A stretch of DNA of 63,994 nt, counting the filler. It is 12 parts of 12 records of this genome, joined end to end, with 100 filler letters (N's around TTAATTAATTAA, not from the genome) between each part and the next. Parts side by side here need not be neighbours in the genome. Positions count along the whole stretch, not along the records: positions 33,263 to 36,895 come from SRR7504441_17748; 11 more parts are not named here. One strand, given 5' to 3'. Shown here one piece after another: positions 6,160-52,056 of the stretch. A model generated the notes under the pieces. The model did no database searches and was not told where the DNA came from. It saw nothing but the letters and a program-made list of their open reading frames with translations. A program made the translations under genes and the position numbers. How positions within the stretch are numbered: position 1 is the first letter of the stretch; every line of letters begins with the position of its first letter.

Positions 6160-6259
6160 NNNNNNNNNNNNNNNNNNNNNNNNNNNNNNNNNNNNNNNNN
6201 NNNTTAATTAATTAANNNNNNNNNNNNNNNNNNNNNNNNNNNNNNNNNNNNNNNNNNNN
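6160..6259. other. Artificial contig linker
   Basis: N44-TTAATTAATTAA-N44, with stops in all six frames. Confidence 0.99.
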
Positions 6260-13072: not shown

Positions 13073-13172
13073 NNNNNNNNNNNNNNNNNNNNNNNNNNNN
13101 NNNNNNNNNNNNNNNNTTAATTAATTAANNNNNNNNNNNNNNNNNNNNNNNNNNNNNNNNNNNNNNNNNNNN
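13073..13172. other. Artificial contig linker
   Basis: N44-TTAATTAATTAA-N44. Confidence 0.99.
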
Positions 13173-33262: not shown

Positions 33263-36200
33263 ACTCCGAATTCCTTCTCACCCTCGCCGTCCTGCCACAA
33301 CCAGCCGCATCTAACGACATTCAACGGCATTCAACTGGCACCTCAGGTTCGATCGTGACTGCCACCACAACCGACACTCGAGGGAGCAGTTTCCCGTCCA
33401 ACAACGACCTGAAGCAACCTACAAATGCCGTTAAATGCCGTTAAATACAGCCGAGGCCTCACCTATATCGTCGCTCTTGAAGTTCGCCGCCTCCTTAATC
33501 ACAACAGTCAGCCCTGGCAAAGGAAAGTCGCTCCGGAGTCGCGTGCTCGCGAGCTCGGTTGGAGATATATACGGCCGGAATAATAGCTTGAACTTGCTGT
33601 CTGAACCGGCTTCATTCGCTTCATGCGGCTGCTCATTCCACTTAATGCTCTGCCGGCGCGGAGTGCTCTGCGCCGTCCGGATTAGGGACATAAGTTAACA
33701 TCTGTAGCTGAACACCTTCCTTTTATATTATTAGGGCGTGACCTGCATCTCTGTGGCCAGGCTGGTGAGCCGCCGCTGCCGCCGCTGCGGACGCTCGGTG
33801 TTTGTGTCACCGTGGCACTGGCACATTGTCCTGGGCACAGCTGTTAAGCTAGCCCATGCCCTAATCGGGACAGCGTTAAGCTATTCAGATTCCTAATTAG
33901 GAAGGCGGCGTTAAGCACCGGAGTTTGTGGAGGCACATCCGCTTGCTCAGCCAGACCGATTCCCTCAAGAACGCCGTGTCCAGCAGCCACCTGCCGCCAA
34001 TCAACGGCATTTAACGGCATCTAACTGCATCTAACGGCATTCACCAGCGCTTGCTGTCCTCGACCAGCGCTTGATAAAAGTGGAGCGCGCCTTGGTCCAT
34101 CAAGGAGACAACGTTCGGGTCGGCTTGCTGCAGATACTCCCACGCCCGATCTCGGGGCGAGAGGGCCAGCAGGGCGGCCTCGCGCTCCTGTCACTAGCTT
34201 AACACCTTCCTAATCGGGAAAGCGCTTAACACCTCGGTCGGCATGGCATCCAGCACCGACTCACGCTGCGCCAGGGTGGTTAGATGCCGTTAGATGCCGT
34301 TAAATGCCTGCGCTAACGGCATCTGGTGGAGCTCAGCTGCAACGTCCAGAACTCGCTTGTTGGCCAGCGTCGCTGATACCGAATCAAAGTTAGCGGATTA
34401 AGATTAAAATTGATATCAATTGCCTGCAATCTCCTCGGAGCTCCTGCAACTACCGTCGAGCGACTCGAGCGACTCCTTGGCATTTAGGACCTAACCCGGG
34501 GGTTATTTCCTTTTAAGGCAAGTGTGACGGGCCTGCGCGAGAGCATGGCTGCTGTCCTGTCGGTCGGCCTGGAGCAGCTGGCCGAGCCTGAACCGCATCT
34601 TCATGGTGGCCACGCCGCAGCCCTGTGACAGTTGCCCGGTCAGGTGTTAAGCTAGCCATTGCCTAATCGGGAAAGAGGTGTTAACCTGGGTCATCTCGCC
34701 GTAAAGGCAGAGAGAATCGGAATTGTTCCGCATAAACATCTGGAGCAGCGCCCACGAGCCCGGATACTCCTGTCACTAGCTTAACACCTTGCCTAATTGG
34801 GAGATTGTCTATGTTAACAGTCTATGTTAACCTGCATTGAGAGGATCTGGTGCAGGTAGAAGCCGTTGACCAGCTTGCGAGCCTTCAACTGCCCAGCCAG
34901 CTCACAAGCAGCACACAACACAGATCACGCCACACTGTGCACACAGCAGCAGCGCACTAGGCACACTGTCTAGCGACAGGCTACAGCACGTAACAGTACA
35001 GCGCAGCGCTATTTCAAGGAGAGCGACCGTCTGGCGGCCAGTGAAGGGCAGGAAGTGGCCCATGTGGATGAACTCCAACAGCTCCTTGGTAGGCACCTGA
35101 ATGCCGTTAAATGCCGTTAAATGCCGTTAATTGCGCCTCGCAGCTTGCGAGTGCGCGGAGGTTGTTGGCGAAGGCCACGAACACGAGATCGTCGTAAAGA
35201 CTCCAGTGCCTGCCAATCCGCTCAGCCAGCACTGCTGCTGGTGCTACTAGTAGTGCGTATCATACTGAGCTATTGTAGCATAGCAGTATAGAGTATAAAG
35301 CGTAGCTCTATTTGCCTGAAGAAGTCCTCATTGATTAGTTCCTTTAGCGGCTGCAGTTTAGCGTAAATAGCCACAAACATCAAGAGCACCAGCACCAGCG
35401 ACACCGTCAGGTACCTACACACACCCGCACCAGTCAGCTCCCATGGCTGACTGGGGACACATTATTCTTACTATTATCCGCTATGTAATTAGTATGTATT
35501 AGTATGTATTAGTGTGTTACCCCAACAGCTTGCAAAGAGCTCCTAATAGAGAGCTGCCGTAAAGCTGCTCCTTGAGCATTTTCATCTGCACCCAACGGCA
35601 TTCAACGGCATTCAACGGCATTTCACGCACCTGAATCGAAAAGTTGCGCGTCTCGAATGATGTGATGATCTGAAGCAAGTTGCGGTCGGCCACCTGCCAG
35701 GAACAGTTAGGCGTCGGTGTGAAAGGAGCACGGTCGCAGTTACTAGGCAGAATGATGACTGCGGCAACTAGCTGTGGCTACAGCCATGCTGCTATAGCCT
35801 CTATCACTAGATAAATACAGTACTAGTAAAGCATCCGAGTATAGCCACCTGCTGCAAGTAGAATGCCATGTTCTTCGCACTGACCACCATGTGCGCATAA
35901 GCCTGCCCCACCACTCACCCCAACCACCGCCGCCTCCAGTGACAGCCCCATATACCAGTACTACTAAACCATACTCCGGTAGTCGTATACACTAGCTGAG
36001 TAAGCAACCTGTCGGCAATCCCGCTCCTTGCACCGCTCCTCAGCCCCAACCTCCATCCCCTCCAGCTCATCCACCGGACCTGCCCCACCGCCCATTATTC
36101 CCTTATTAGGCAGGTGTGACGTCCATTATTTCCTAATTAGGCAAGCACCCCGCCCGCGGTGTATCCAGTCGCTCAACCCATCCGGCTCGGACTCCAGCCA

Positions 36201-36758
36201 CCTCCAACGACATTCAACGGCATTTAACGGCATTCCAACGGCACCAGAACAGCCGGCCAGCGCAGTAGCACGACCCACCCACCGCGCCGAGCACCCACAG
36301 CGCTTCCAGCGCCGCTGCGACGCACATGAGCACCTGCGGCCGGTAACGGCAATCCGTTGGACGGCGCACGTTGTGGAAGCCGTCGAAGCGGTCCGGCTCC
36401 CACCAGTACTTGTGGACGTTGGCGCCGACGAACACCATGTTCAGCATGCAACGGCAGGCCTGTCGTCCGTTAGATGCCGTTGGAGCCGGCCGGGGCGCCA
36501 GGGCGGAGGTGACGAGCCGGTGCAAACCGGTTTGGTTTCGGTCAAAGTTGACAAACTTGAAGATCCGGCGCTCCTGCCAACGGCATTTCAACGGCATTTC
36601 AACGGCATTTCACAACGGCCACCTGGTCAGACGGGTAGTAGGGGAAGGTGCTGATGTCCGTCAGGAGCGGTCGCCCACTGGCGCTCGCTTCTCCGAAGCT
36701 GCCCCCAACAGCATTTAACGGCATGACAACGGCAGGGCCACCGCTCGCGCAGCCGCAT
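33263..36758 (-). CDS. Multi-pass membrane protein (at least 634 aa, 25 exons, 3'-truncated), possibly entering a C2 domain at the contig end
   Basis: Manual removal of 24 GT/GC-AG introns (1592 nt in total) leaves 1904 nt of uninterrupted frame: MRLRERFGEASASGRPLL...VLMCVAAALEALWVLGAVGG...GYLTVSLVLVLLMFVAIYAKLQ...DLVFVAFANNL...GLTVVIKEAANFKSDDIG. The start may lie further upstream (ATG 36872 plus a 30-nt intron at 36840-36869). Confidence 0.85.
33292..36741. repeat. Intronic repeat family A: tandem 10-11-nt (A)ATGCCGTT(A/G)A units in 11 introns
   Basis: Introns 33292-33341, 33419-33462, 33991-34044, 34266-34307, 35097-35136 (three perfect ATGCCGTTAA), 35586-35630, 36202-36244, 36334-36369, 36460-36498, 36574-36622 and 36699-36741. 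Confidence 0.9.
33668..36148. repeat. Intronic repeat family B: CCTAATTAGG-type palindromic core with GTGTTAAGCTAG or GTCACAC arms in 7 introns
   Basis: Introns 33668-33742, 33831-33918, 34188-34232, 34491-34532, 34623-34685, 34770-34831 and 36080-36148. Cores lie at 33860, 33892, 34209, 34662, 34792, 36101 and 36132. Confidence 0.88.
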
Positions 36759-36895
36759 CGCTGCTCCGGTCGCCCGACGGCAACACACCCGGCGACCAGC
36801 CGCGGACCTGCCCCAGGAGCCGCGCCGATGTGCGGAATTCTGCAGATCCGTTAAAATCAACGGACAAACCATGGCCGAAGGAGCGAATGGAGAAC

Positions 36896-50384: not shown

Positions 50385-50493
50385 GTCGCGCAGATCGCCT
50401 AACCCCGTCGGACCGCGTTCACAACGGACTTTTGGCTGCCACACAGTGAGCACACCGTGACCGGCTCCTCCGCGCTTGAGAGCTCGGCCTGAT

Positions 50494-52056
50494 ATGGGCT
50501 CACGCGGGTGGCTCCGGTGGTGCTGCGCGGCTCAGGCGGTGGCGCTGTGGGCAATCGTGGTGGCTGTCTGGTGGGGTCGTCTCAGCCCTGACAGTGGCGC
50601 CGAGAGCCCGTGCTCGACAGACGCCCAGCTCGGCGCAGTGGTGTTTTGCGACCGGATGGTGCTCCCGGGTGGCGTCCGCGCCGCATTCCTTCGGGTGAGC
50701 TCTACGGGCCGGATACAGGCGGTAACCCACGGCGACATCGCTGCGGCGAGGGAAACCGCTGCCCGGCTGCAGCTGCCGCTGCGCGACCACACCGGCCGTG
50801 TGTTGAGCCCGGGATTGATCGACGTGCACTGTCACATCTCAGCGGTGGGCCAGCGGGGCTGGGAGGGCTACAGCAGCGCCACCATGGCAGCTGCAGCCGG
50901 CGGGGTGACCAGCATCGTCGGGATGCCGTTGAACTCGCTGCCCCCGACCACCAGCCTCTCGGCGCTGGAGGGCGAACTCCGTCAGGCCGCGGCAGAGAGG
51001 CTGTGGGTGGATGTCGGGTACTGGGCTGGGATTGTGCCAGATAATGTGCATGACGGCTCGCTGGCCGAGCTGCTGGCTGATCCGCGAGTGCTAGGTGCTA
51101 AGGCCTTCCTCTCGCCGCTGCCGCCCGCAGCCGGCTACACAGCGGTGAGTCCGGCCGAGCTCGCAAGCGGAGCCGGTGTGCTGGCAGCCGCTGGTCTGCC
51201 GATGCTGGTGCACTGTGAGCTGATGAGTCCTGAGGAGATGGCAAGCCTCGAGGCCAGAGCTCGCGAGCACGGCGACCCGAGGCGTTTCTCTAGCTTCCTC
51301 AGCACCAGACCAGCCCTATTTGAGCAGCGAGCCATCGGGGTCCTCGTAGACACAATGGTCCGGACACCCGGGCTGCGAGCGCATATTGTGCACTTGAGTG
51401 ATGCCAGCAGCCTGGATCGGATCGTTGCGGCAAAGGCTCAGCTGCCCAAGAGGCAGCTGACAGTTGAAACGTGCCCGCACTACCTGACTTGGTCGGCTGA
51501 GGAGATTCCCGAGGGCGAGACCCGTTTAAAATGCCTGCCTCCTATCCGTGATAGCGCGAACCGCGACAGGCTGTGGGAAGGGCTGCAACGTGGGCAAATC
51601 GACATGCTTGCAAGCGACCACTCGCCCTGTGAGCCAGCGATGCGCCAGCTGGAGCGAGGCAACTTTTTCGAAGCTTGGGCCGGGATTTCTGGGCTCCAAA
51701 TGAACCTCGCGGCCAGCTGGAGCGCTGCCCGGCAACGTAACGCCAGTTTGGTCGACCTTGCCCGCTGGTGGAGTGAAGAGCCGGCTCGGCTGGCTGGGTT
51801 GTGGCCCTGGAAGGGCAGTTTGGATGTTGGCAAGGATGCTGACTATGTGGTCTGGGCTCCTGACGAAGCTGCGCTGGCAGATCACGTTTACCACCGTCAT
51901 CCAGGCACGCCGTATGTGACTCGGCAGCTGGTTGGCGACGTGAAGGAGACCCGGTTGCGAGGTAGGGAAGTGTTTAAGAATGCCGGACAGGGGCCGCTGC
52001 ATGCGGCCGGGGCCGCTTGTGGTCGAATCATTAGACGAGAAACCCAAGGCGGCTAG
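50494..52056 (+). CDS. allB: Allantoinase (cyclic amidohydrolase) with an N-terminal membrane anchor, intronless
   Basis: Motifs PGLIDVHCH, WEGYSSATMAAAAGGVT...MPLNSLPPTT, LVHCE, TRP, HIVHLSD, VETCPHYL, KCLPPIR, ASDHSP and AWAGISGLQ. Confidence 0.92.
   Translation: MGSRGWLRWCCAAQAVALWAIVVAVWWGRLSPDSGAESPCSTDAQLGAVVFCDRMVLPGGVRAAFLRVSSTGRIQAVTHGDIAAARETAARLQLPLRDHTGRVLSPGLIDVHCHISAVGQRGWEGYSSATMAAAAGGVTSIVGMPLNSLPPTTSLSALEGELRQAAAERLWVDVGYWAGIVPDNVHDGSLAELLADPRVLGAKAFLSPLPPAAGYTAVSPAELASGAGVLAAAGLPMLVHCELMSPEEMASLEARAREHGDPRRFSSFLSTRPALFEQRAIGVLVDTMVRTPGLRAHIVHLSDASSLDRIVAAKAQLPKRQLTVETCPHYLTWSAEEIPEGETRLKCLPPIRDSANRDRLWEGLQRGQIDMLASDHSPCEPAMRQLERGNFFEAWAGISGLQMNLAASWSAARQRNASLVDLARWWSEEPARLAGLWPWKGSLDVGKDADYVVWAPDEAALADHVYHRHPGTPYVTRQLVGDVKETRLRGREVFKNAGQGPLHAAGAACGRIIRRETQGG

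Follow-up and report, generated by a model that had tools for sequence, protein, structure and literature searches.

How spliceosomal introns arise is still argued, and introners are the best-documented source. In the excerpts of the cited papers on which we draw throughout, introners are transposon-like, measure from about 60 nucleotides (nt; the shortest named is 64 nt) to several hundred nt, and carry target duplications of 3-8 nt. Introners which work in both orientations are found in Polarella, Symbiodinium and Aureococcus, in some introner classes one or both splice sites derive from an AGGH target duplication, and in some classes the donor type follows the first base of the element (10.1101/2020.10.14.339549). 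In Micromonas, the mean length of IE-C is 67 nt and a GC donor is found in 53% of IE-A1 copies (PMC3879977), and short introners are found in metagenome-assembled genomes of Chrysochromulina and Florenciella, the Chrysochromulina example spanning 70 nt (PMC9860276).

The stretch of DNA analyzed here (the window) measures 63,994 nt and consists of 12 contigs of 3.3-9.1 kb each, which are not one molecule. On one of them (33263-36895, 3,633 nt, GC content 0.56; the target contig) lies an intron-dense protein-coding gene, and all copies of a family of short tandem arrays, referred to as family A, were found on this contig. The family A unit is ATGCCGTTRA or its complement, 10-11 nt in length, with two to four tandem copies per intron. 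The explanation that we favor, with about as much doubt as confidence, is that family A is a repeat-only, minisatellite-type introner which spread at the DNA level.

Family A arrays in an intron-dense gene

The motif AACGGCAT, counted on both strands, has 23 matches in the window, 22 of them inside the target contig, in comparison to 1.81 on average and at most 6 in 100 dinucleotide-preserving shuffles, none of which reached 23. Tandem Repeats Finder (TRF) reported nine arrays with a period of 10-11 nt on the target contig, with 2.4-3.8 copies each, and in three of these the units are 100% identical. The eleven arrays of the initial annotation, which measure 36-54 nt, were all recovered at the same positions, where the minus strand reads GT/GC...AG from end to end of each segment. 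They are given below along with the host gene and a hairpin candidate which was absent from that earlier list.

33268..36872, minus strand: intron-dense protein-coding gene, heuristic model with 20 required introns and 4 to 5 more candidates
36840..36869, minus strand: hairpin candidate UCCGUUGA-UUUU-AACGGA, 30 nt, 8-bp stem, fold z = -4.02, directly after a possible ATG
36699..36741, minus strand: family A intron, sense ATGCCGTT, 43 nt, GT donor; not used by the dynamic programming model of the gene
36574..36622, minus strand: sense-oriented family A intron of 49 nt with three perfect 11-nt units and a GT donor; in-frame stop if retained
36460..36498, minus strand: family A candidate, antisense AACGGCAT, 39 nt, GC donor; model E = 0.0043, assigned by likeness only
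36334..36369, minus strand: family A candidate, both orientations, hairpin AACGG-AUUG-CCGUU, 36 nt, GT donor; fold z = -2.37
36202..36244, minus strand: family A intron, sense, 43 nt, donor GTGCCGTT which is a unit variant, acceptor GAG; retention gives a stop
35586..35630, minus strand: sense-oriented family A candidate of 45 nt with three perfect 10-nt units and donor GTGCGT; best model match, 47.8 bits
35097..35136, minus strand: family A intron, antisense, 40 nt, donor GCGCAA, acceptor GGCATTCAG; retention gives a stop
34266..34307, minus strand: family A intron, antisense, 42 nt, donor GCATTT within the unit; retention gives a stop; also in the relative described below
33991..34044, minus strand: sense-oriented family A intron of 54 nt with four units and donor GTGAAT; stop if retained
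33419..33462, minus strand: antisense-oriented family A intron of 44 nt with a GT donor and a TAG acceptor; stop if retained
33292..33341, minus strand: family A intron, sense, 50 nt, GT donor; retention gives a stop

Seven of the 12 candidates are needed as introns, as retaining any one of them gives an in-frame stop, and these seven arrays must be spliced for the frame to be open. When the array at 36741-36699 is retained, the frame shifts and no stop is met. Three other candidates (36498-36460, 36369-36334 and 35630-35586) have lengths which are a multiple of three and are stop-free, and their intron status is therefore based on likeness to the other copies only; for the first of these the 5' border is ambiguous, with 27 or 37 nt also possible. 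The arrays, or at least these three, might instead not be introns and be translated as peptide repeats such as MPLNAVECR, given that the three keep the frame and an unconstrained model reads through them. However, in each of the seven sister copies the frame is broken or a stop is present, the three candidates have the same borders (G|GT or G|GC ... CAG|) as those seven, and opposite orientations would encode unrelated peptides, which makes translation of the arrays a very improbable account.

The likeness among the arrays extends over their full length. The six sense copies align end to end, with GTG, three units, GTTGG and (C)AG in this order, at a mean column identity of 71%. A model of 47 positions built from these six copies gave 10 matches in the window at E <= 0.0043, six on the minus strand and four on the plus strand, the latter being the four antisense copies with E from 5.6e-10 to 0.0043. 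Self-BLAST of the exon-only DNA and of the protein returned the self match and one 12-nt palindrome only, with no internal repeat. The family likeness is thus confined to the introns, up to their borders with the exons, and duplicated exon-intron modules are not its source. As in introners, the intron sequence is shared along its full length up to both exon borders and not into the exons, and in the array at 35097..35136 four units make up the whole intron from donor to acceptor. At the family A sites, G is the last base of 10 of the 11 exons upstream and the first base of 8 of the 11 exons downstream. A sense unit was also seen in modeled exon beside two antisense introns, at 34315-34322 (by 34307-34266) and at 36444-36456 (by 36498-36460), and in each case the sense unit and the adjoining antisense intron form an inverted repeat over the exon-intron border; at these places the true borders may differ, or the arrays may be fold-back copies.

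The gene model has a single open frame of 766 amino acids (36835-33268) with 20 introns of 40-139 nt and a possible ATG at 36872-36870. The GC content is 0.605 for the exons (0.755 at third codon positions, GC3) in comparison to 0.483 for the introns. A penalty-only splice model was dropped, as it called too many introns in GC-rich DNA. Pfam searches with ten exon-containing frames gave nothing credible, a phmmer search with 131 amino acids against 1.84 billion proteins gave two weak multi-stretch matches which were taken as low-complexity, and a word search with proteins of 87 amino acids and longer returned no relatives of the gene. The gene is real and fast-evolving, and at least 20 predicted spliceosomal introns, all of them very short, interrupt it.

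For comparison, a relative was available in contigs from one public DNA run (X1, an aquatic metagenome, share 0.10), at roughly 95% identity within a range of about 90-97%. Among the 40 listed differences to this relative (9 more lie outside the list), 22 fall in modeled exons and 18 in introns. The percentage of exon differences which are synonymous is high (19/22), third codon positions account for 15 of the 22, and all three indels (+5 at 34829, -15 at 35494 and -1 at 36851) lie within modeled introns or the hairpin candidate. The synonymous excess in the exons, together with the indels outside the exons, thus demonstrates that the exons are under purifying selection in the modeled frame. 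The hairpin at 36840..36869, which lies upstream of the modeled open reading frame, is not coding, because the relative has the 1-nt deletion at 36851 within it; it may represent an intron or belong to the 5' untranslated region. In the contigs of the relative, three family copies and the hairpin are fully covered and two more copies partially, and all of these are present. The family A arrays in the relative show substitutions without any change in copy number, and for one relative contig 5 of its 15 differences fall within the 40 nt of the array at 35097..35136.

In terms of splice signals, the initial annotation had linked the orientation of the arrays to the type of donor, and its counts were reproduced: all six sense copies have GT donors and none has a GC donor, whereas one antisense copy has a GT donor and three of the four have GC donors, with Fisher p = 0.033 (n = 10). 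However, three GC donors are also found among the other 13 introns of the gene, and the antisense copies in comparison to these give p = 0.099; GT donors moreover prevail in the related contigs described below. The link between orientation and donor is thus weak and not distinguishable from the GC rate of the other introns, and GC donors amount to 6 in the 23 introns of the gene (10 oriented family A copies and 13 others). More of the initial annotation held up at the level of single arrays: the one at 36334 holds both orientations and folds as a hairpin, and the alignments agree that the donors GCATTT (34307) and GTGCCGTT (36244) are variants of the unit. The donors of such arrays, and parts of the acceptors, are indeed made of unit variants. 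The simplest account would be that the antisense unit starts with G|GCAT and that one A-to-G change turns the sense ATGCC into G|GTGCC, with both GT and GC donors working in an organism which tolerates the latter.

The unit also holds C/TAACGG at a period of 10-11 nt, and YAACGG is the Myb/MSA core, so that the arrays might be kept because a Myb-type factor uses their units, which lie one helical turn from each other, in the manner of an orientation-independent intragenic enhancer. Independence from orientation would be natural for such a DNA site. In the related contigs, however, the units drift to AACGCCA, GACGCTG and AACCCC while the array form is kept, nothing ties the gene to regulation, and the boundaries of the arrays at splice signals are left unexplained by this account, which we regard as very improbable.

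Two further kinds of repeat were observed in the introns of the same gene. A second intron family has the motifs GTGTTAAGC... and CCTAATCGGGA/CCTAATTAGG, which within the window occur on this contig only.

34188-34232, 34623-34685, 34770-34831, 33831-33918 and 36080-36148, minus strand: second intron family

The 70-nt intron at 35451-35520 (minus strand) holds another 10-nt tandem unit, ACTAATACAT, in 3.5 copies, and the relative is without 15 nt of this array (at 35494).

Arrays of the same unit in other contigs

Public metagenome contigs were scanned for three units in a row, which gave 75 loci. In many of these the array is single and unrelated, and the surrounding DNA can have any GC content. 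When prokaryote genomes were scanned in the same way, 25 records were returned, all of them single arrays in bacterial genomes and therefore background rather than relatives, and a scan of viral contigs gave 2 loci. A subset of the metagenome loci (L001, L007 (= L068), L008, L015, L021, L026, L031, L035, L041, L048, L053, L060 and L064) is GC-rich and clearly eukaryotic, with several short arrays per 1-2 kb between coding segments, and the units in this subset are AACGGCATTT(T) and drifting variants. By reading of these eukaryotic contigs, the sense strand carries AACGGCATTTT in at least 10 loci versus one (L041), and the donors of AACGGCAT-sense arrays are mostly GT, and the link between orientation and donor in the window thus does not generalize. 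A search with the glyoxalase-II-like exon of L015 gave no informative names for the taxon of the marine contigs. A 14-15-nt word common to the intron at 35520 and L048 was dropped as a candidate link, with about three such matches expected by chance.

The flanks of 84 two-flank arrays, from the fetched loci and the target contig, were compared with 592 mismatched-flank controls, for which the 99th percentile of the score was 9.09. Flanking direct repeats above this value were found for 9 of the 84 arrays, of which five are independent and eukaryote-like and four belong to one unrelated element. The five independent duplications measure 25 nt in L064, 20 nt in L021, 19 nt in L035, and 15 nt each in L048 and L053, with at most two mismatches each. 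Reading of the sequences showed AG|GT or AG|GC inside the duplicated segment in L064, L021, L048 and L053, where the first duplicate supplies the donor and the second the acceptor, and removal of one copy together with the insert gives open frames across the junction. The arrays in these contigs arrived by DNA insertion, which lends indirect support to a DNA-level route for the family in the window.

Long, variable duplications are typical of target-primed reverse transcription, while cut-and-paste transposases give fixed short ones. The duplications in the related contigs, which are long and variable, suggest target-primed reverse transcription or the repair of staggered breaks over a classical transposase. 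As a version of the DNA-level account with another engine of insertion, one may consider that the arrays are retroposed tails, that is, extremely 5'-truncated copies of a retrotransposon without long terminal repeats (non-LTR) or of a short interspersed nuclear element (SINE) with a 3' (AACGGCATTT)n end, inserted by target-primed reverse transcription. Besides the duplications of 15-25 nt, this account draws on inserts which are pure tail-like repeats of variable copy number, and on a second element in the same contigs, TTATTACCATATATGGAC..., which has duplications of 15-20 nt. However, no gene for reverse transcriptase or endonuclease and no longer element turned up in the loci, where no systematic search was made, the copies in the window are without duplications, and staggered-break repair which captures satellite DNA gives the same picture. 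Retroposition is in our judgment an improbable source of the arrays.

Several other repeats were noticed in the fetched contigs. The second short element, TTATTACCATATATGGAC...GATTCTGCTCC, is found at intron-like positions in L041, L001, L008, L021 and L053; its copies in L041 (about 540-640 and about 1000-1090) have flanking direct repeats of 15-20 nt, and within these repeats the intron begins with the same sequence as the exon that follows it. In L031 (700-870), a 26-nt piece of exon and a short array are duplicated in tandem, which gives two look-alike mini-introns with the 26-nt repeat between them. The near-identical loci L016, L028, L062 and L063 carry a (AAAACGGCAT)4 array with a flanking direct repeat of 21-23 nt, GCATCCTCTGCCCCCAGCGCA; this element differs from family A and lies in lower-GC DNA. 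Finally, L055 (1-260) holds a degenerate array of the unit family of about 260 nt, in a eukaryote-like contig and adjoining AT-rich non-coding DNA, and such a satellite-like copy outside any gene could be a source of array DNA.

Origin of the arrays and their host

We propose that array DNA would be inserted, at the DNA level and in either orientation, where the coding sequence reads ...G|G..., and that the spliceosome would remove the arrays because single-base variants of the unit make splice signals. In the sense orientation the donor would be G|GTGCC and the acceptor ...GTTGGCAG; in the antisense orientation the donor would be G|GCATT or G|GCGCA and the acceptor GGCATTCAG, and UUAAC and CUAAC of the antisense unit are possible branch sites. 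In the contigs of the younger relatives, the splice signals would come from the duplicated AG|GY. After insertion, the arrays would undergo minisatellite-type evolution, with units homogenized within an array and fast change between arrays; this step is proposed because three arrays are perfect and yet the arrays differ, and because 5 of 15 differences to the relative fall in a 40-nt array. The insertion origin, the insertion mechanism and the branch sites are what we infer from the sequences at hand.

A number of observations weigh against this proposal. The gene model is our own heuristic, based on splice-aware dynamic programming with a self-trained codon table, and the removal of the family A arrays by splicing is predicted from sequence. 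Outside the target contig, over 60.4 kb (11 contigs), no match of the sense-copy model had E < 0.1, the next E being 0.15, and the 10-12 copies of family A lie in one 3.6-kb gene, within a small and possibly mixed bin, rather than in many genes. None of the nine window arrays has a flanking direct repeat above the null (top score 8 in comparison to 9.09). The DNA-level insertion put forward by the initial annotation is supported indirectly by the duplications in other contigs, and by the presence of both orientations in one family, a pattern which reverse splicing alone would not produce, but not by duplications in the window itself. In the contigs of the relative, no intron-less joint was found at the covered family A sites; the relative keeps every covered copy, and therefore no presence/absence polymorphism was seen. 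In the 75 metagenome loci the sense-copy model matched mainly the unit core, with no match spanning all 47 positions, and no fetched locus scores as high as the best five copies of the window. Matches to the core are expected, because the loci were fetched by the unit, and with no full-element match the window is therefore linked to the other contigs by a 7-8-nt core and a period of 10-11 nt only, while chance-like single arrays of the unit core occur in the 25 bacterial genome records. Lastly, that the target contig and the contig with the allantoinase gene described below come from one organism is an assumption of the bin.

The main rival explanation is an origin in situ, whereby the introns are old and unrelated and the repeat either arose in them or moved between neighboring introns of this one gene, through slippage and through gene conversion or template switching, without the creation of new introns. 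This would explain why the arrays are found in a single gene and in none of the other 11 contigs, and the window arrays are indeed without target duplications. The uniform units within arrays and the fast change between strains would reflect active local repeat dynamics, the second family with GTGTTAAGC/CCTAATCGGGA is likewise confined to the same gene, and the exonic sense units at 34315-34322 and 36444-36456 by antisense introns fit local template switching. However, opposite orientations are not readily explained by conversion between introns, the array at 35136-35097 consists of units up to both borders with no old intron sequence left, and the same unit and period are seen elsewhere as bounded insertions with target duplications in unrelated genes. 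The initial annotation had itself named occurrence in this gene only as a sign of local conversion; within the window the copies are confined to one gene, but contigs of other organisms carry arrays of the same core. In general, we regard the in-situ origin as possible, though doubtful.

With insertion at the DNA level as the favored reading, a wider one may be put forward tentatively, and with clearly more doubt than confidence. The arrays would represent an undescribed kind of intron-making mobile DNA which consists of a 10-11-nt minisatellite only, without inverted ends or coding capacity, and which inserts at AG|G sites, pointing either way and leaving long target duplications of variable length (15-25 nt), giving introns of 30-100 nt by means of the duplicated AG|GY or of its own point changes. 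It would be active in several uncultured marine and freshwater lineages of eukaryotes, with an old and locally dense colony in the window.

The contigs of the window are joined by N44-TTAATTAATTAA-N44 linkers (e.g., 6160-6259 and 13073-13172), and no Rfam family matched anywhere in the window. The GC content of the contigs ranges from 0.495 to 0.650, with 0.60-0.65 for most neighbors of the target contig, and given this spread the bin may be mixed. Eukaryotic genes on other contigs of the window encode a U-box/Sel1 protein, an EF-hand protein and an amidohydrolase. The last of these (50461-52053, plus strand) is an intron-less open reading frame of 531 amino acids for an allantoinase, an assignment with which the protein atlas agrees. 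Its best named matches are from Prymnesium parvum (56% identity) and Pleurochrysis carterae (59% over 65% of the query), these haptophytes are followed by Ectocarpus, and neither Micromonas nor Ostreococcus was found among the best 120 matches. The allantoinase, which alone provides a taxonomic clue and is valid as such only for a coherent bin, hints at a haptophyte-like host. The host is a GC-rich uncultured aquatic eukaryote.

Comparison with known intron-forming systems

Algae rich in GC-AG introns have frequent GC donors, at 56-65% of the checked junctions in Emiliania huxleyi (PMC4028052) and at about 14-17% in Aureococcus and Pelagomonas (10.1101/2024.10.30.620910), and resemble in this respect the gene studied here with 6 in 23, but in the excerpts of these two papers the GC donors are not tied to a repeat unit. 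The BOC1 introns of the Mamiellophyceae, as described in the excerpt of PMC3879977, are similar to those of the present gene in that they are very short, dense and of lower GC content than the exons, within a lower-GC stretch; they are however singletons without mutual likeness, whereas at least two intron families are present here. The host of the BOC1 introns is mamiellophycean, while the taxonomic hint here, at the level of the bin only, is toward haptophytes and not green algae.

New introns with short flanking direct repeats, as in Daphnia, have been attributed to double-strand-break repair, and introns can also be created by duplication of a segment which contains AGGT. The loci L064, L021, L048 and L053 are like these models in that the duplicated target holds AG|GY. 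A key difference is that the models use unrelated filler or duplicated exon, while the filler in the other contigs is one repeat unit at many sites.

Among introners, family A is comparable to IE-A and IE-C of Micromonas, to those of Aureococcus and to the introner-like elements (ILE) of Polarella and Symbiodinium, in that the copies are short, alike from border to border, and found in either orientation. The general logic of the initial annotation, which ascribed the arrays to orientation-independent insertion of DNA that supplies splice signals, is thus already established for other introners. Family A differs from introners in that it holds nothing but a 10-11-nt tandem repeat over 30-54 nt, without terminal inverted repeats, and that it shows no target duplication in the window and occurs in a single gene. 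The duplications of the related contigs likewise differ from those described for introners in the cited excerpts, as they are variable and measure 15-25 nt in comparison to 3-8 nt. In the literature searched, which left aside the supplementary catalogues (PMC9860276, PMC12130899) that could hold repeat-only families, we found neither an introner made of a bare 10-11-nt tandem repeat (30-54 nt) nor introner target duplications of 15-25 nt.

If three or four bare 10-nt units in tandem are enough to found an intron, whichever way they point, intron creation would require much less than has been assumed, and simple repeat dynamics would be a source of intron gain. The long and variable duplications of the related contigs point to a route of insertion unlike that of known introners with their fixed duplications of 3-8 nt. 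Family A also supplies concrete sequences with which the minimal signal needs of a GC-tolerant spliceosome may be tested.

Family A is also similar to the intronic minisatellites known as variable number tandem repeats (VNTRs), with units arranged head to tail, uniformity within the array and fast change between strains. The key difference is that a VNTR sits in a larger intron, whereas a family A array is the whole intron together with its splice sites, and this is repeated 10-12 times and in both orientations.

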